A stretch of 64,000 nt of DNA from Clostridia bacterium. GTDB lineage: Bacteria; Bacillota; Clostridia; Oscillospirales; CAG-272. The translations under genes and the position numbers were made by a program. Below, in pieces: positions 6,477-36,408 of the stretch. The notes below the pieces were generated by a model. It did no database searches. It worked only from the letters and a program-made list of their open reading frames with translations, and was not told the DNA's origin. Location: positions 6,418-70,417 of the forward strand of contig JAFTMG010000007.1 of NCBI GenBank assembly GCA_017452525.1, written 5' to 3'. Position 1 is the stretch's first letter; the number at the start of each line of letters is the position of its first letter.

Positions 6477-7084
6477 TTTTTGCCGTCCTCATCCAGAAAA
6501 CGAATGAATTTAGTGCGGTAGATGGGGGCAGGCCCGTATTGTCGAAGTGCCGCCATGTGGTCCTTGGTGCCGTAGCCCTTGTGCTTGGCGATGCCGTACT
6601 GAGGATATTGGGCGTCCAGCTCGGCACACAGGCGATCTCGGTAGACCTTGGCAAGAATGGATGCGGCGGCGATGGACATGGAGAGCGCGTCTCCCTTGAC
6701 CACTGCTTGCGTGGGAATGGGGAAGTCACGGTTGATGTTTCCGTCGATCAGCGCCGCATCGGCGGGGATGGGCAGGGCGGCAATGGCACGGCGCATGGCG
6801 AGAAGATCCGCCTCCAGGATATTGGTCGCGTTGATCTCCTCCACGGAGCCCTCGGCAATGGCGTAGGCGAGCGCCTTTTCGCGAATGACGTCGTAAAGCT
6901 TCTCCCGTTTTTTCTCGGTCAGCTTCTTGGAGTCGTTCAGCCCCTCGATCACAAGCCCCGTCGGCAAAATGCAGGCGGCGGCGACCACGGGACCGCAGAG
7001 CGGGCCGCGCCCTGCCTCGTCCACGCCGCAGACGTATTGATATCCTTTTTGGATCCATTCCTGTTCGATGGAATAATCGGGCAT
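6473..7084 (-). CDS. rnhB: ribonuclease HII
   Basis: VCGVDEAGRGPLCGPVVAAA active-site motif, DSKKL, 203 aa. Confidence 0.95.
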   Translation of the reverse strand: MPDYSIEQEWIQKGYQYVCGVDEAGRGPLCGPVVAAACILPTGLVIEGLNDSKKLTEKKREKLYDVIREKALAYAIAEGSVEEINATNILEADLLAMRRAIAALPIPADAALIDGNINRDFPIPTQAVVKGDALSMSIAAASILAKVYRDRLCAELDAQYPQYGIAKHKGYGTKDHMAALRQYGPAPIYRTKFIRFLDEDGKK

Positions 7085-29577: not shown

Positions 29578-29653
29578 CGGGGTGTGGCGCAGTTGGTAGC
29601 GCGCGACGTTTGGGACGTCGATGCCGCAGGTTCGAATCCTGTCACTCCGACCA
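29578..29653 (+). tRNA. tRNA-Pro (anticodon TGG), CCA encoded
   Basis: Folded by hand. Acceptor CGGGGTG/CACTCCG (one G-T), D-arm GCGC/GCGC, anticodon stem CGACG/CGTCG with loop TTTGGGA (TGG), T-arm GCAGG-TTCGAAT-CCTGT, discriminator A plus CCA. 76 nt. Confidence 0.92.
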
Positions 29654-30748: not shown

Positions 30749-31402
30749 ATGAATAAATTGAAAAATGAAATAATAAATACAACGTGTTCTTGGCTATCTT
30801 TGGGAATTCCGTGCATAACTCCGATTAAAGATACCGTAGAGGCAATACACTCCATTTATGACCAGGTGTTGTTTGATAAATTGGCTTATGTACTCTCAAA
30901 TCAAGAGAGTGATTTTGATGACTGGTTAAAGATATCAGAAAAATTTGATGAAGATAATAAAGCTTATAACAAAATGGTAAAACAACTTATCTATTATATA
31001 AATGCAATGAATGAAACGGATTTGCTCTTTGCATTTTCCAATTTATTAAGAGCATATAAGTGCGGATTGATTTGTAAAAATGATTTCTTCAGACTCGGAT
31101 TTTGTCTTACCAAGCTATTAGCGGAAGATGCTCAATACTTATCAAATAATATCAGCAAAGGTAGCATAGAGGAAAATATTTATTGCATATCACTGAGCAA
31201 TAATGGTTTAATGTATAACAGATCTCGTGGCTTTTCTGATAGTGAATCTGATGCGGAAAAAGAATTTTATAGTTTTACACAGATGGGTAAAATGTTGGAT
31301 AAATATGCTCTGAATTTTGGCAATGAAGAACGTTATAATTATAAAGAAGTGGATAATATTATTATTCAAGGTGTCGCAGAGCACGTTTTGAAGAAACTAT
31401 AA
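30749..31402 (+). CDS. hypothetical protein (217 aa, predicted mostly helical, no assignable family)
   Basis: Clean ORF 15 nt after the AbiH-like stop, with the same AT-rich composition. No TM helices and no catalytic motif I recognise. Confidence 0.65.
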   Translation: MNKLKNEIINTTCSWLSLGIPCITPIKDTVEAIHSIYDQVLFDKLAYVLSNQESDFDDWLKISEKFDEDNKAYNKMVKQLIYYINAMNETDLLFAFSNLLRAYKCGLICKNDFFRLGFCLTKLLAEDAQYLSNNISKGSIEENIYCISLSNNGLMYNRSRGFSDSESDAEKEFYSFTQMGKMLDKYALNFGNEERYNYKEVDNIIIQGVAEHVLKKL

Positions 31403-31417: not shown

Positions 31418-32125
31418 TTGCTTTTGATTATTAAAGGTTCAACATCGAATTTTATATCCTTCTCTGCAGATATTGATCTAATTAATGATTTGCAAGAAAA
31501 CGCAAAGAAACAACTCACGGATATGGGTTACAAAGATCTCAATCCGAAAGATTATTTGAATACTTACTTTAATGTAAAGAAAAGAAAAATCATCCCAACA
31601 CCACGCACCATACACAAATCGGATGTCTTTTGTTGTCCAAGGGGCTATGAATCCCCACTCAAAGAGATTGAAAAGCATATCACTAACGGTGATGATTTAA
31701 CGCCATATATGAGCAAATCTATAGATAAAGGTGATTTTTATGATAGTCTTCTTTATGATTGGAATATCCAACATCTACACTTAGGTAGTATAGTTCCAAG
31801 CGAGAAGTTCGTTTCACGAAGCAATTATTTACTTTTCGTATTCTTTACAGAAAAAGACGCATATTTTATTCAAATATATCCACATAAAGAGAAATATGTT
31901 TTTGCCAAAGACGAAATGATGCACATTATAGATCGTAATTGGAGTGGTTTAATCAGCCGCTTTTCAATAAATGGAATTTTATCTGAAACCATCACGGACA
32001 AGGATCGCGCCATGTTGAGGAAATGCGGAATATCAACATTTACAGATATGGGAAACGGAAAGATATATGGTAATATTGGTGGAGGGTATGCGTCCAATGG
32101 AATATCGATCCTCCTTGTGTTTTGA
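31418..32125 (+). CDS. hypothetical protein (about 233-235 aa, no assignable family)
   Basis: Starts at TTG 31418 or TTG 31424 after a gagagg RBS, 15 nt after the upstream stop. Contains a distinctive LLYDWNIQHLHLG segment. I cannot assign a family. Confidence 0.6.
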   Translation: MLLIIKGSTSNFISFSADIDLINDLQENAKKQLTDMGYKDLNPKDYLNTYFNVKKRKIIPTPRTIHKSDVFCCPRGYESPLKEIEKHITNGDDLTPYMSKSIDKGDFYDSLLYDWNIQHLHLGSIVPSEKFVSRSNYLLFVFFTEKDAYFIQIYPHKEKYVFAKDEMMHIIDRNWSGLISRFSINGILSETITDKDRAMLRKCGISTFTDMGNGKIYGNIGGGYASNGISILLVF

Positions 32126-32133
32126 TTGCGGTT

Positions 32134-32205
32134 TTATTGTAACACGAAAGTAGAGTCCTGTCCGTGACTTTTGTCACAAGCTGCTTTGCGTTTGCTGATA
32201 TGTAG
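32134..32205. repeat. direct repeat copy A (about 70 bp), carrying a cGTGA-N6-TCACa palindrome
   Basis: The first 46 nt (ttattgtaacacgaaagTagagtcctgtccgtgacttttgtcacaa) match 32921..32966 with one mismatch. Similarity continues, with a 4-nt indel, to about 32205 / 32990. Confidence 0.85.
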
Positions 32206-32280
32206 CCTTTGCCTTAACTGCTCGAGTGAGAGTTCACCGTTTTTCTTCATTCTTCCGTACCCCTTATTCTGTGTATTAAA

Positions 32281-32305
32281 TAGGGCGCAGCAAAGCCGCA
32301 CCCTA
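32281..32305 (-). terminator. probable terminator hairpin for the 137-aa gene
   Basis: tagggcgc..gcacccta arms (7 of 8 pairs) immediately after the stop at 32310. A/T-rich tail on the minus strand. Confidence 0.4.
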
Positions 32306-32309
32306 TAAC

Positions 32310-32723
32310 TTATGTATAATATTTGATTTCTAGCGTAGAAGAATAGCCACTTTCGGTAGAGTGTATAACAACATCCCCATGCTTCATGCAGTGTCGCATA
32401 GCATTGCATACCATAGGATAAGATCTCTTGAGATTCAAACCATTGTGAACATCTCTCGCAACAATTACAATGCTTGATTTGCCATCATTTCTAGCACTTT
32501 CAATCATTCGGTTGATATGAAATCTTATAGCCTCTGTGGTTATTTTCTTCTCTTTTTTAGATTCAGGCATACTTTCGCTGATTTCTATATCCCAATCATC
32601 ATCGAAAGCATCATCTTCATCAAATACACCCTCTTGAATGAGTCGTTTTTCCATTTTGTTGATTCGCTTCTCTAAAATTTTTACTTTTGCTAATAATTCT
32701 ACAATGATAGTATCGTAATTCAT
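32310..32723 (-). CDS. hypothetical protein (137 aa): N-terminal coiled-coil-like helix, acidic linker, small C-terminal globular domain
   Basis: aggaggta RBS, consensus promoter, AT-rich. The N-terminus LLAKVKILEKRINKMEKRLIQE is heptad-like. DEDDAFDDDWDIEISE is an acidic stretch. The C-terminal VARDVHNGLNLKRSYPMVCNAMRH domain is unassigned. Confidence 0.7.
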   Translation of the reverse strand: MNYDTIIVELLAKVKILEKRINKMEKRLIQEGVFDEDDAFDDDWDIEISESMPESKKEKKITTEAIRFHINRMIESARNDGKSSIVIVARDVHNGLNLKRSYPMVCNAMRHCMKHGDVVIHSTESGYSSTLEIKYYT

Positions 32724-32822
32724 AGAATTCTACCTCCTTTTTTTAAAATTCTATCATATTAAGTAGAATTTGTCAATAGAATTTTTAGAATTTTAATAGA
32801 ATTTGTATAGAATTTCTATTCT
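32723..32822 (-). repeat. array of AAATTCTA / TAGAATTT repeats (five phased direct copies plus inverted copies and two TAGAA(A)TTCTA palindromes)
   Basis: Plus-strand tagaatt at 32723, 32764, 32777, 32786, 32797 and 32808 (spacings 13, 9, 11, 11). Inverted aattcta at 32747. Palindromes tagaattcta (32723..32732) and tagaaattcta (about 32808..32818). Confidence 0.85.
32748..32776 (-). promoter_or_regulatory. consensus promoter for the 137-aa gene (minus strand TTGACA-17-TAGAAT, TGn-extended)
   Basis: -35 is the reverse complement of 32771..32776; -10 is the reverse complement of 32748..32753. Both are embedded in the AAATTCTA repeat array. Confidence 0.65.
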
Positions 32823-32920
32823 GATGATTTGTTTCGGACAAAAAGTGTTCATTTTCGACTTATATCTTTGTTTAATGCGGTGTAATTTTTATACACCGCA
32901 TTTGCCTTACTCGTCCTTGC

Positions 32921-32990
32921 TTATTGTAACACGAAAGCAGAGTCCTGTCCGTGACTTTTGTCACAAACGGCTTTGTGTTGATATGTGGCA
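32921..32990. repeat. direct repeat copy B (about 70 bp), overlapping the native promoter region of the CoADR operon
   Basis: See copy A. Copy B also contains the -35 element of the downstream promoter. Confidence 0.85.
32950..32965. promoter_or_regulatory. CRP/FNR- or Rex-like palindrome cGTGActtttgTCACa upstream of the -35
   Basis: 16-bp dyad matching TGTGA-N6-TCACA at 9 of 10 half-site positions. An identical copy is at 32163..32178. Confidence 0.5.
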
Positions 32991-33006: not shown

Positions 33007-33024
33007 ATTCTTGTAATACGCTTG

Positions 33025-33040
33025 AGTGACAAAAGTCACA
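33025..33040. promoter_or_regulatory. second palindrome aGTGAcaaaagTCACa, downstream of the -10 (operator position)
   Basis: Same half-sites as 32950..32965 with a complementary spacer. Centred about 20 nt downstream of the predicted start site. Confidence 0.5.
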
Positions 33041-33099
33041 GCGGACACGAAAAAGGTATGGTAAAATATACTCACAGAAAGAAAAACGGAGGTAAACTT

Positions 33100-34782
33100 A
33101 TGAAGACCTTGATCATAGGAGGCGTGGCAGGCGGTGCATCCTGCGCGGCAAGACTCAGACGACTTGATGAGAAAGCTGAGATCGTTATTTTGGAGCGCGG
33201 AGAGTATATTTCCTTCGCCAACTGCGGACTTCCTTATTATATCGGCGGAGAGATCACCGAAAAATCCAACCTCACATTGCAAACACCGGAGAGCTTCAAG
33301 GCTCGTTTTAATATTGACGTTCACACTTTCAGCGAGGCGGTTGCCATAGATGCAGAAAACAAGACTGTGACGGTCAAAGATCTGACAACAGGCGAGGAAT
33401 ACACCGAGCGATACGACAGCTTGGTTCTTTCTCCGGGAGCTTCTCCCATTCGTCCGGACATTGAGGGAATCGACAGCGAAAAGGTATTCACCCTTCGTAA
33501 CATTCCCGACACGCTAAAAATCAAGCGGTATATAGAGGAAAGCCATCCAAAATCGGCGGTGGTCGTAGGCGGTGGATATATCGGAGTGGAGATGGCTGAA
33601 AATCTTGCCAACGCAGGGCTTGACGTGACCATTGTGGAGCTATCCGACCATCTCATCGCTCCTCTTGATTTTGATATGGCGGCGGACGTACACAGATATG
33701 TTAAGGGGCAGGGCATCAAACTTGCACTTGGTAACGGCGTTGTTGCCATCAAGGAACGCGATGACTCTCTGACGGTTGTATTGAATAAGGGGGCAATAGA
33801 AGCAGATATGGTTCTCCTGTCCGTAGGCGTTCGCCCCGATACCGCCTTTATCAAGTCAGCCGGAATTGAAACAAACGAACGCGGCAGTATTATCGTGAAT
33901 GAGAGAATGCAAACGAACGTTCCCAATATTTACGCCGTGGGTGATGCGGTAACCGTCAAGAATTTCGTAACGGGTGAGCCGTCCTTCATTCCGCTTGCAG
34001 GTCCTGCCAACAAGCAAGGGCGCATCACGGCAGACAATATCTGCGGTATTCTCTCGGAATACAAGGGTACGCAAGGCTCGTCGGTGCTGAAGCTCTTTGA
34101 TATGACGGTCGCTACCACGGGTCTGAACGAAAAGAGCGCGGCTGCCGCAGGCTACGATTATGATAAGACCTACACCTATTCCGCATCCCACGCATCCTAT
34201 TATCCGGGTGCGTCTATGATGTCGGTCAAGGTGTTATGGGACAAGGCAACGCACAAGATCCTCGGTGCGCAGATCGTGGGTTTTGATGGGGTGGATAAGC
34301 GTATGGACGTGATCGCCACCGCCATGCGGCTCGGCGCGAAAGTGACCGACCTTGCAGAACTCGAGCTTTGCTATGCGCCGCCCTTCGGCTCTGCCAAAGA
34401 TCCCGTGAATATGGTAGGATTTGTTGCTGAAAACGTCATCACGGGCAAGATTGGGCAGTTCTTTTGGCACGACGTGGAAAAGCTCCCACGCGACGGAAGC
34501 GTGACGTTGCTTGATACTCGCACAAACACCGAGGTCTCTCGCGGCAAAATCGAAGGCTTTATGCACATTCCGCTTGACTCGTTGCGTGAGCGCATCGACG
34601 AGATTCCCAAGGGAAAGCCCGTGTACGTGCATTGTCACTCAGGACTTCGCTCCTATATCGCTTGCCGCATCCTCGTTGGAAACGGATTTGAATGCTACAA
34701 TCTCGCAGGCGGATGGAGGCTCTATGAGTCGGTCATCCATGAAAGAACGGTGCCTGAGTATATCTGCACCGAATGCAAATAA
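33100..34782 (+). CDS. CoA-disulfide reductase / NADH-oxidase-family flavoprotein with a C-terminal rhodanese domain
   Basis: Start trimmed to MKTLIIGGVAGGASCAARL after a ggaggt RBS. Redox Cys motif SFANCGLPY, a second dinucleotide fold VVVGGGYIGVE, and the rhodanese active-site loop VHCHSGLRS. Confidence 0.88.
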   Translation: MKTLIIGGVAGGASCAARLRRLDEKAEIVILERGEYISFANCGLPYYIGGEITEKSNLTLQTPESFKARFNIDVHTFSEAVAIDAENKTVTVKDLTTGEEYTERYDSLVLSPGASPIRPDIEGIDSEKVFTLRNIPDTLKIKRYIEESHPKSAVVVGGGYIGVEMAENLANAGLDVTIVELSDHLIAPLDFDMAADVHRYVKGQGIKLALGNGVVAIKERDDSLTVVLNKGAIEADMVLLSVGVRPDTAFIKSAGIETNERGSIIVNERMQTNVPNIYAVGDAVTVKNFVTGEPSFIPLAGPANKQGRITADNICGILSEYKGTQGSSVLKLFDMTVATTGLNEKSAAAAGYDYDKTYTYSASHASYYPGASMMSVKVLWDKATHKILGAQIVGFDGVDKRMDVIATAMRLGAKVTDLAELELCYAPPFGSAKDPVNMVGFVAENVITGKIGQFFWHDVEKLPRDGSVTLLDTRTNTEVSRGKIEGFMHIPLDSLRERIDEIPKGKPVYVHCHSGLRSYIACRILVGNGFECYNLAGGWRLYESVIHERTVPEYICTECK

Positions 34783-35504: not shown

Positions 35505-35548
35505 AAAGATCAAAGCCACGGCTCGTTTGAGCCGTGGCTTTGATCTTT
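35505..35548. terminator. bidirectional terminator (20-bp perfect stem)
   Basis: aaagatcaaagccacggctc-gttt-gagccgtggctttgatcttt, between convergent genes. Confidence 0.85.
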
Positions 35549-36213
35549 TAGTATGCAAGTTTTTGGAGTTTCTTTTTATCCTTGATCACGATACCTTTTC
35601 TCGTGACCTCAATAAGTCTGTCGGAAGCGAGGTGCTTTAACATTCTCGTAACCACCTCACGGGCAGTTCCAAGGTGCCGCGCAATTGTTTCGTGTGTCAG
35701 CGTGACGGTATCCGTTCCGTTTGCCTGCGTTTCTTCAAGAAGAAAGATGGCAAGGCGCTTATCCATACTCATAAAAACGACCTGTTGCATGATCCACATC
35801 ACGTCCGAAAAGCGTCCGACGGCAGTTTCAAGGGCGTAATTTTTCACTTCAAGATAGCGGGAACTAATGTCACCGAAAGCCGCGCTGCTGATACGGTAGC
35901 AATCGCTTGGAACTTCGGCATCCACATATACGTCAAAAGTGATACTGTTCAACACGCACGAAGCGGATAACATACAGATATCACCGGGCACAAGGCGATA
36001 GAGTGTGATCTCCTTGCCGTCCTCCGAGAGCATATACAGGCGCAATCTGCCCGAGCGCACAATAAATAGCCCCGAGCATCCCATATTGTCGTGAACGGGC
36101 TGTTCCTTGTCAAAGTGTTCCTCTGCGGTATTCTCACACAGATGGTTTTTATCTTCTTCCTTTAGTGCTTTCCAGAACGGAAAGTATTGTTCGTAGAAGG
36201 CGTGTAAAGACAT
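35548..36213 (-). CDS. Crp/Fnr family transcriptional regulator
   Basis: Start trimmed to MSLHAFYEQYFPFW. cNMP-binding-like beta-roll (GLFIVRSGRLRLY..EDGKEITLYRL) and a C-terminal HTH (THETIARHLGTAREVVTRMLKHL). Confidence 0.88.
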   Translation of the reverse strand: MSLHAFYEQYFPFWKALKEEDKNHLCENTAEEHFDKEQPVHDNMGCSGLFIVRSGRLRLYMLSEDGKEITLYRLVPGDICMLSASCVLNSITFDVYVDAEVPSDCYRISSAAFGDISSRYLEVKNYALETAVGRFSDVMWIMQQVVFMSMDKRLAIFLLEETQANGTDTVTLTHETIARHLGTAREVVTRMLKHLASDRLIEVTRKGIVIKDKKKLQKLAY

Positions 36214-36408
36214 ATATCTCCGTCCTTTCATGATTTTGTTTTTACTATTATACCATATTTTTATAAATTTTTCAACCGATTTGGCTTTTCTTTGCTTCCT
36301 CCGATGCAATTTTTGAGGTCTGACGGTGGATTTCCATCAGACTCTTCACGTTCTGCCACATTCCTTCGTCCCTCGGCACGCTTTGCTTCGATCTGATCCC
36401 CCGAGCCG

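Follow-up and report, generated by a model that had tools for sequence, protein, structure and literature searches.

Repeats at the promoter of an undescribed gene are a probable operator for its own product in an apparently decayed defence island

Why would the promoter of a small gene be buried in phased repeats, and which protein reads them? This question is raised by a 137-amino-acid (aa) gene of an unnamed family, located on the minus strand of a 64,000-nucleotide (nt) stretch of DNA from a Clostridia bacterium (contig JAFTMG010000007.1; this whole stretch is called the window here). The original prediction, made from the letters alone, described direct repeats, a palindrome at the start codon and a promoter lying inside the array in the 100 base pairs (bp) upstream of the gene (32723-32822). 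We confirmed these features, and the minus strand reads as described. On the strength of sequence comparison, we propose with a probability of roughly 0.7 that the repeats are an operator through which the gene's own product regulates its expression negatively, within what appears to be a decayed defence island. The original prediction held that the encoded protein could be the binder, and we also find it to be the best candidate, given that the motif is found family-wide and changes in a concerted manner, and that the protein is predicted to combine a coiled coil with a winged-helix-like domain.

A promoter scan identified the arrangement TTGACA-17-TGnTAGAAT, which matches the consensus at 11 of 12 positions and carries the extended -10 TG, and we predict a very strong promoter of the sigma-A type. 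Five direct copies of AAATTCTA are positioned around the -35 hexamer with start-to-start distances of 11, 11, 9 and 13 bp; the fourth copy adjoins the hexamer and the fifth begins on its last base, and an inverted copy supplies the -10 hexamer. AAATTCTA occurs seven times in the 64-kilobase (kb) window, compared with 1.9 expected copies, and seven copies were reached in none of 100 shuffles; six of the seven are packed into 70 bp. The perfect palindrome TAGAATTCTA fills the space between the ribosome-binding site and the start codon. A further palindrome claimed at the distal end of the array stood only in part. TAGAAATTCTA does consist of two 5-nt arms around one central base, but its left (outer) arm is not kept in relatives that are 81% identical. 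The half-site TAGAA that forms this arm was seen only in the nearest relatives (L001, L093, L095 and L096; loci and contigs carry L numbers and proteins P numbers), and because L085 and L002 do not have it, it is probably not essential.

The gene also contains a TAGAATT unit at codons 8-10 (32695-32701), at the IVELL motif of the protein. Codon choice at these codons across 76 homologous genes showed no clear preference for the unit, so we dropped it as an extra operator unit and take it as a by-product of the conserved IVELL motif. A role of the palindrome at the ATG on the RNA level was likewise dropped after we found no stable RNA structure in the 5' untranslated region and start region of the gene (z = -0.2).

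To return to the promoter, the original prediction suggested a search for the same repeat unit near homologues in other genomes, and this search was positive. Our 80 loci came from as many species, for the most part Oscillospirales and other Clostridia besides a few Bacilli and Erysipelotrichales, and we compared 75 regions upstream of family genes with 427 other upstream regions of the same loci. TAGAAT was present in 63 of the 75 family promoters, compared with 16 of the 427 control regions, and ATTCTA in 60 of 75 compared with 10 of 427. All 45 perfect copies of TAGAATTCTA in 528 kb of sequence lie at most 130 nt upstream of a family gene, and none lies elsewhere. Nearly all homologues have a consensus -35 followed directly by ATTCTA and, as the -10, TAGAAT within the longer TAGAATTCTAATAGAAT; 47 non-redundant promoters gave the consensus TTGACATTCTa…TGaTAGAATTCTAATAGAAT, and many homologues carry (TA)GAATTCT immediately 5' of the ATG. 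The array upstream of the -35, by contrast with this core, is limited to a clade of 135-138-aa proteins with a long acidic linker, in which the mean number of upstream units is 3.1, compared with 0.23 in shorter members. Upstream of the -35, members of this clade have two to five units; the total for L083 is six. A link between linker length and the binding of direct repeats is a suggestion that follows from this distribution. The original prediction had named the absence of a repeat array from homologous loci as evidence that would count against it; we found that the motif is kept family-wide, but the direct-repeat array only in the long-linker clade.

The motif also changes as a set. L009 and L011 are syntenic loci whose proteins are 80% identical; L009 has TAGAA/TTCTA at each half-site, whereas L011 has TAGTA/TACTA at all five. 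The changed sites are the one after the -35, the -10 palindrome and its neighbour, and the one before the ATG, at which the palindrome position reads CAGTATACT. In some lineages the motif is replaced at every site, by TAGTATACTA or by TGCAATTGCA. A distant clade (L074-L079 and L037) uses (A)TGCAA/TTGCA(T) units, including the palindrome ATGCAATTGCAT, and in L075-L078 one unit of the (A)TGCAA type lies against or just after the -35. That the word changes while the architecture stays argues for a binder encoded by the locus, rather than a host-wide factor or a purely physical feature of the promoter. A comparison of the window with L085 points in the same direction as regards selection: third codon positions of the gene are 56% identical and the region from -200 to -101 is 31% identical, whereas the region from -100 to -1 is 89% identical, so the units are under selection. 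Between the two there is no change in any of the five units, the -35, the -10, the ribosome-binding site or the palindrome.

The gene had been called an orphan, which it is not. A profile search of 1.84 billion representatives returned 816 matches at E < 1e-3, and the homologues form more than 246 clusters at 90% identity, mostly from gut Clostridia. No Pfam, NCBIfam, PHROGs or PADLOC model matched the protein above noise, although a sub-threshold SKA1 match sits on the C-terminal domain, and no source searched provided a meaningful family name. The family alignment shows an invariant N-terminal helix (MNYDTIIVELL..LE), a variable linker that is long and acidic only in the window's clade, and a conserved C-terminal domain (…PMVCNAMRQCM…SGYSSTLEIKY). 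Pairwise comparison with L001 and L085 gave a dN/dS (ratio of non-synonymous to synonymous substitution rates) of 0.023, which indicates strong purifying selection; values for L002, L003 and L083 were left out, as an unaligned one-codon indel makes them invalid.

The predicted layout of a coiled-coil N terminus, an acidic linker and a small C-terminal domain agrees with the AlphaFold2 model of the full protein, in which a long helix (residues 3-30) and a disordered linker (42-58) precede a compact domain of helices (H) and strands (S or E) in the order H-S-H-H-S-S. Single-sequence and profile searches of the PDB returned only GCN4-type coiled coils, matched by the N-terminal helix, and nothing for the C-terminal domain; the coiled coil presumably serves dimerisation. 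Modelled alone, the C-terminal domain reached a pLDDT (model confidence score) of 89 with elements H5-21, E26-30, H31-37, H44-53, E60-63 and E74-78, consistent with the winged-helix topology H1-S1-H2-H3-S2-wing-S3. We searched the full and domain-only models against the PDB with Foldseek, and the full model against BFVD. The latter gave nothing significant, and the best PDB matches were the winged helices of Stn1, Rpa2, Zalpha and CodY, with TM (template modelling) scores of 0.5-0.56 and E >= 0.07. The suggested check for a ribbon-helix-helix or helix-turn-helix fold had a mixed outcome: the model has no ribbon-helix-helix, but its topology is winged-helix-like. We use this term, short of a proven winged helix, because the Foldseek matches are weak and include Smr domains.

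The C-terminal domain also occurs on its own, appended at the C terminus to DUF6884 proteins (P0205, P0215, P0220, P0223, P0229, P0198 and P0161). P0205 has an additional GIY-YIG nuclease domain, P0205 and P0223 have a topoisomerase-type zinc ribbon, P0223 also matches the Pif1 2B domain, and P0161 carries the domain in three tandem copies. Judged by these sequences it is a mobile, unnamed domain, and its fusion to DUF6884, GIY-YIG and zinc-ribbon proteins, together with its tandem occurrence, fits a nucleic-acid-binding module. Literature searches on the palindrome and on DUF6884 yielded nothing relevant.

How would such a protein act on its own promoter? That it binds the units, that binding represses and that it has a role in the island is what we infer. 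Each C-terminal domain would recognise a single unit of 7-8 bp, which reads AATTCTA on one strand and TAGAATT on the opposite one, and coiled-coil dimers would set one such domain on each unit, with the flexible linker permitting direct as well as inverted arrangements. Some units are found upstream of the -35, others adjoin it or follow it immediately; one more sits on the -10, and at about +9 to +18 the gap from the ribosome-binding site to the ATG is occupied as well. From these positions, bound protein would exclude RNA polymerase, and the gene would switch itself off once there is sufficient protein. The upstream tandem array probably adds cooperative, high-occupancy binding.

Several observations weigh against this proposal. 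About 12 of the 75 loci do not have the motif, some of them lying right behind an upstream gene (L017 and L020). The association between the array and the long linker rests on one clade, so that it amounts to a single evolutionary event. The structural matches to winged helices are not significant, and those to Smr domains are just as good. L011 and L037 retain the presumed recognition helix, PMVCNAMRQCM, despite their different operators. Finally, the 20-mer AATTCTATTGACAAATTCTA is also found at the promoter of an unrelated tRNA operon that has no family gene close by, and therefore this core alone is not diagnostic. A metagenome scan for the 20-mer core returned nine JGI contigs, none with a family gene, five of which represent this one tRNA-operon promoter; the window's clade does not seem to be held in that collection. 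The 20-mer there is the -35 region of a conserved promoter before a tRNA cluster upstream of secE-nusG (for example, L101 at 6916-6935). This promoter is present in contigs L098 and L101-L104, which come from an unrelated lineage, and the DNA fetched from them has no family gene.

Table 1 Features of the 137-aa gene, its promoter and the borders of the surrounding cassette, in window positions
Feature	Position	Strand	Evidence or remark
137-aa gene, unnamed family, intact open reading frame (ORF)	32310..32723	-	coiled coil 3-30, disordered acidic linker 42-58, C-terminal domain 63-136 (H-S-H-H-S-S)
Perfect palindrome TAGAATTCTA, between ribosome-binding site and ATG; its final A is also the first base of the ATG	32723..32732	.	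palindrome scan; site also filled in many homologues
Ribosome-binding site GGAGG	32733..32737	-	read off sequence
Inverted AAATTCTA unit; -10 hexamer TAGAAT (32748-32753) on its minus-strand reading, extended TG before it	32746..32753	+	promoter and motif scan
-35 hexamer TTGACA	32771..32776	-	promoter scan; kept in 59 of 75 family promoters
Five direct AAATTCTA units	array 32764..32815; 32808-32815, 32797-32804, 32786-32793, 32777-32784, 32764-32771	-	motif scan of window
Distal inverted half-site TAGAA; makes TAGAA-A-TTCTA with first unit	32814..32818	-	read off sequence
Terminator hairpin of lost integrase gene; predicted to insulate promoter from upstream transcription	32874..32902	-	-16.7 kcal/mol, z = -5.5
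Last 14 nt (…KDE, stop) of deleted tyrosine-integrase ORF, joined to repeat R	32907..32920	-	alignment with L085
R, first copy of promoter/operator segment, between cassette and CoA-disulfide-reductase promoter	32921..32989	-	repeat comparison
Hairpin 3' of 137-aa gene, predicted weak terminator	32280..32306	-	-19.9 kcal/mol, z = -2.7; kept in L001, L080, L094
Remnant of excisionase-like HTH_17 gene (MKKNGELSLEQLRQRLHISKRKAA…), fused to R'	32177..32250	-	collinearity with L001 ends at 32177
R', second copy of promoter/operator segment (GTGAC-AAAA-GTCAC box and CGGACA-17-TACAAT)	32134..32206	-	repeat comparison

The surroundings of the gene suggest what it may serve. It sits in a low-GC segment at about 29.7-32.9 kb (30-39% GC, compared with 50-58% in the flanks) between a tRNA-Pro gene (29578-29653) and a CoA-disulfide-reductase operon. 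The segment combines a position on the 3' side of a tRNA and deviant base composition with defence cargo, namely AbiH, a 217-aa gene (30749-31402) and a PD-T4-7-like gene. No second copy of the tRNA-Pro 3' end was found as an attachment (att) repeat, the 217-aa gene, which lies between the other two, had no match in any library, and an Rfam scan of the region returned only the tRNA besides sub-threshold noise. The PD-T4-7-like gene (31418-32125, plus strand) covers positions 8-235 of the 337-position PADLOC model; it is probably truncated at its C terminus, since its last codons, past a junction at about 32108, are the reverse complement of the leader of a rhodanese gene seen in L094.

Relatives with proteins 81-91% identical to that of the window show a fuller gene order: an integrase, the array, the family gene, a hairpin, a 192-194-aa protein with two HTH_17 domains, and convergent cargo. 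A tyrosine integrase lies upstream in L085, L086 and L067, and an intact HTH_17 gene of 192-194 aa is present in L001, L080, L067 and L085-L088 (in L001, at least 180 aa are seen before the contig ends), with HTH_17 domain matches found in L001 and L067. The cargo is AbiU/AIPR in L085, where it is followed by tRNA-Ser(tga), and Pycsar PycC and PycTM in L087. Other members of the clade, with 76-84% identical proteins, have related versions of this order. In L081 (76% identical) the HTH_17 protein has 88 aa and a dCTP-deaminase-like gene lies between it and tRNA-Ser(tga), in L067 an unassigned 229-aa gene occupies the interval between the HTH_17 gene and tRNA-Ser(tga), and in L003 tRNA-Ser(tga) follows 115 nt 3' of the family gene, with no HTH_17 gene or cargo.

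The window retains only pieces of this module. At the junction 32920/32921 all that is left of the integrase is the last 14 nt of its ORF and the terminator hairpin; in L085, where the start of the contig truncates the integrase ORF to the 201 aa that are seen, this ORF ends …GNKDE* and a homologous hairpin follows its stop codon. The HTH_17 remnant is broken after 24 codons at a 12-nt microhomology, CAAAGCAGCTTG (32177-32188). Because the integrase ORF is down to 14 nt here and an integrase is present in L085, L086 and L067, the window holds a remnant rather than a functional element. The sequence comparison thus bears out the earlier suggestion of a relic of a mobile element, one in which the putative self-regulated gene is what survives of an integrase, regulator and HTH_17 module. 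The hairpin 3' of the gene is predicted to terminate weakly because its U-tract is poor, and in intact relatives the promoter would read through it into the HTH_17 gene. As this gene is excisionase-like, the 137-aa protein is likely, on the basis of gene order, to be the maintenance or immunity regulator of the island.

Across the family as a whole the neighbourhood is more varied. Families flanking the gene in 76 loci are heterogeneous, with integrases, serine recombinases, GmrSD, DUF559 and HTH_17 the most frequent and each of them rare, and most family members do not adjoin recombinases. The 528 kb of flanking DNA from these 76 loci (L001-L079) contain 36 tRNA genes, and 20 of the 76 loci have a tRNA within 2 kb. 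These tRNAs are usually convergent and just downstream of the family gene, which suggests that the family cassettes sit at integration hotspots beside tRNA genes.

Could another protein of the island bind the units? In this alternative, which we consider improbable, the binder would be the excisionase-like HTH_17 protein or the arm-binding domain of the integrase, and the array a recombination-directionality or attachment-arm element. Excisionases typically bind phased direct repeats, and in phage P2 the Cox boxes have a dual role, in excision and in repression. Furthermore, the array lies about 100-180 nt downstream of the integrase and upstream of the HTH_17 gene in L085, L086 and L067, and the clade that is alone in having the direct-repeat extension is also alone in having the HTH_17 partner. 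However, arrays of three to six units are kept in L083, L084, L002 and L003, all of which have neither the HTH_17 gene nor an integrase, indicating that the array belongs to the 137-aa gene. The unit is embedded in the promoters of about 60 family members without either partner, and in the window both partners are destroyed and the units are perfect all the same. As general background, P2 Cox, ImmR of ICEBs1 and Stl of SaPI offer a similar picture, with a small binder gene between integrase and excisionase-type genes and repeated sites at the promoter of the excision-side genes; they differ in that the protein studied here has no Pfam helix-turn-helix, Cox or cI-type domain match, and its function in the island is derived from gene order only.

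Rather less probable still is a protein that coats the AT-rich island in the manner of nucleoid-associated proteins or xenogeneic silencers, with the promoter sites being those of highest affinity. H-NS (137 aa) and Rok share with our protein the N-terminal coiled coil, the flexible linker and a small domain at the C terminus that binds DNA and in Rok is a winged helix, as well as similar size, an association with AT-rich, horizontally acquired DNA and the proposed autoregulation, and the gene does lie inside a 31-37% GC island of a 50-58% GC genome. The L011 unit TACTA is also one of the motifs reported for Rok. Yet there is no sequence match or significant fold match to either protein, and the sites seen here are discrete, specific and confined to the family's own promoters: the perfect palindrome occurs nowhere else in 528 kb of loci, and AATTCTA is not enriched in the remainder of the island. 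Specificity that changes in discrete, concerted steps fits a sequence-specific regulator.

We give a marginally lower chance to there being no dedicated binder at all, the repeats being an UP element or curved DNA with redundant -10-like hexamers that make up a very strong promoter. A-tracts of three to five bases follow one another in the array every 11 bp on average. A nearly identical core, AATTCTA-TTGACA-AATTCTA, at the tRNA-operon promoter of unrelated contigs shows that the sequence is also good promoter context. Against this, it is TTCTA/TAGAA, and not the A-tract, that is conserved in the unit; units are also placed 3' of the -10 and beside the ATG; where TAGTATACTA or TGCAATTGCA has replaced the motif in concert, the architecture is preserved and the composition is not; and the enrichment of the motif relative to the genomes' other upstream regions is about 30-45-fold.

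The original prediction also considered the gene as the regulator of the adjacent Abi-like operon, here AbiH, the 217-aa gene and the PD-T4-7-like gene. The two neighbours share the same low-GC island, but they are convergent, and no copy of AAATTCTA, of AATTCTA or of TAGAATTCTA (the last with one mismatch allowed) lies between 29654 and 32690, and none is near the AbiH promoter. Because the window has no further operator copy, the only downstream target would be whatever the gene's own promoter reads into. In addition, the defence genes at this position differ in every relative, close ones having AbiU/AIPR, Pycsar, dCTP-deaminase-like or rhodanese genes there, and we regard such a role as very improbable.

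Least probable of all is a plasmid- or phage-type centromere or an iteron origin, with the gene encoding a centromere-binding or Rep protein. Direct repeats about one helical turn apart around the gene's own promoter, together with an inverted repeat, recall parC of R1 and iteron rep promoters, but no ParA, ParM or Rep gene was found in the window or in any of about 95 related loci, all family contexts are chromosomal, the units are 8 bp rather than 17-22 bp as in iterons (no search for unwinding elements or DnaA boxes was made), and the model, which begins with a long helix and has no N-terminal strand, shows neither a ribbon-helix-helix nor the double winged helix of Rep. No partition NTPase was found in the window, among the genes called in L081-L096 or, in 76 loci, within the 25 Pfam families that are commonest in the 123 genes flanking the family gene, and there was no Pfam Rep match. 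Similarly, tblastn found no homologue in 72,556 plasmids (PLSDB) or 50,697 phages (INPHARED), nor did a pattern scan of 2.9 million IMG/VR viral contigs.

The likeness that suggested this comparison is nonetheless instructive. In the type II systems of R1 and pSK41, ParR binds direct repeats, spaced by about a helical turn, that flank and overlap its own promoter, and binding both builds the partition complex and autoregulates; in the family described here the site found throughout is a palindrome on the -10, not an array, and no ParM gene, ribbon-helix-helix or plasmid accompanies it. Iteron-binding Rep proteins (RepE, pi and TrfA) place winged-helix domains on direct repeats and repress themselves from an inverted-repeat operator, but they are proteins of 250-350 aa with two winged-helix domains, compared with 137 aa and one small domain here, and their 17-22-bp iterons lie beside an origin; the Foldseek match to RepE54 is far from significant (E = 2.3).

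Two further systems resemble the proposed self-repressed regulator itself. The Omega repressor of the inc18 plasmid pSM19035 is a small dimeric protein that binds cooperatively to short 7-bp units, in variable number, direct or inverted and overlapping or adjoining the -35, and thereby represses its own and other promoters. Omega is, however, a 71-aa ribbon-helix-helix protein on contiguous heptads of a plasmid, whereas our protein combines a coiled coil with a winged-helix-like domain on units spaced 9-13 bp in chromosomes or integrative islands, and there is no sequence or structural relationship between them. C proteins of restriction-modification systems and type II antitoxins are likewise short autoregulated binders that come first in small, itinerant, variable cassettes with palindromic operators on the -35 and -10, but they have Xre helix-turn-helix, ribbon-helix-helix or AbrB folds; the partners here are a membrane peptide of about 30 aa and proteins of 87-127 aa, or the HTH_17 protein. 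The family and its domain are undescribed, and the regulatory principle is classical, not new.

The membrane peptide is encoded at about 25 loci of the wider family (L030, L031, L035, L047, L057 and others). It is conserved, has about 30-33 aa, reads …GRRxGLFIGGVLFGLIRGIFFKNKY and is encoded in what looks like an intergenic spacer, about 110-130 nt 3' of the family gene. The small partner that follows is of one of three types: A (84-115 aa), which ends in …GIWGPSYVYGIITDKRI, B (108-127 aa), which ends in …NQVYWYGIFADMGI, or C (108 aa). No type has a Pfam match, and types A and B, which are probably remote homologues (hhalign E = 2e-4), have no PDB relative. The window's clade has neither the peptide nor any of the three partner types. 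The family protein is fused to the downstream partner in P0127, P0135 and L026 (type B) and in P0143 (type A-like), and fusion in several genomes suggests that the two act together physically. In divergent members the gene directly downstream encodes a restriction enzyme of the GmrSD type (L075, L076 and L078) or encodes DUF3990 (L066), DUF1643 (L019) or DUF6508 (L077), and the regulator may therefore head different cargo genes.

On its other side, the cassette is bordered by a redox locus. R and R' form a 59-73-nt direct repeat that flanks the cassette, 88-93% identical and the only long direct repeat found. Read on the minus strand, each copy has a palindromic box, TGTGAC-AAAA-GTCACG, and a TACAAT -10 about 41 bp 3' of it, and in L094 and L095 R' drives a 106-aa rhodanese gene. 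The box has the look of an operator of the Rex or Crp/Fnr type that serves the redox locus. R and R' are at most doubtful att sites: they are promoter/operator segments of this locus, and the informative contigs are too short to decide. A third box, AGTGACAAAAGTCACA (33025-33040), follows closely on the CoA-disulfide-reductase promoter; the window also has a Crp-family gene, at 35548-36309. In the region 33022-33100, the listed TTG start of the 586-aa reductase ORF falls inside the operator box; translation probably begins some 26 codons further on, at the ATG of MKTLIIGG…, with which the 560-aa product predicted by the gene caller in L091 agrees. A sub-threshold Rfam match to Vibrio RNA AS7 at 33119-33287 on the minus strand (62.7 bits against a gathering threshold of 90) is antisense to the 5' part of the reductase gene and probably reflects conserved coding sequence.

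A bolder idea, which we put forward only as an unlikely extension, is that the family is a new, widespread and self-contained module of gut Firmicutes, composed of an autoregulated DNA binder with coiled coil and winged-helix-like domain, which as a rule has the membrane peptide and a small partner behind it and is at times fused to this partner, and that it acts as a toxin-antitoxin-like, abortive-infection or island-maintenance switch and was recruited in the window's clade as the immunity repressor of tRNA-targeting defence islands. If this were true, the tandem array would provide cooperative, threshold-type control of excision, and TAGAATTCTA, TAGTATACTA and TGCAATTGCA would be ready-made orthogonal repressor/operator pairs built on a new DNA-binding fold.

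Our analysis proposes a function that can be tested, namely sequence-specific DNA binding and self-repression, for a family and a domain without relatives in Pfam, NCBIfam or the PDB; the family is common in gut Clostridia, and predicted nucleases reuse the domain. Natural operator variants that accompany closely related proteins make a recognition code testable and could give orthogonal repressor/promoter pairs for Clostridia. The module also flags tRNA-adjacent hotspots that exchange AbiH, PD-T4-7, AbiU, Pycsar and dCTP-deaminase-like genes, and may in this way aid the mining of defence islands.

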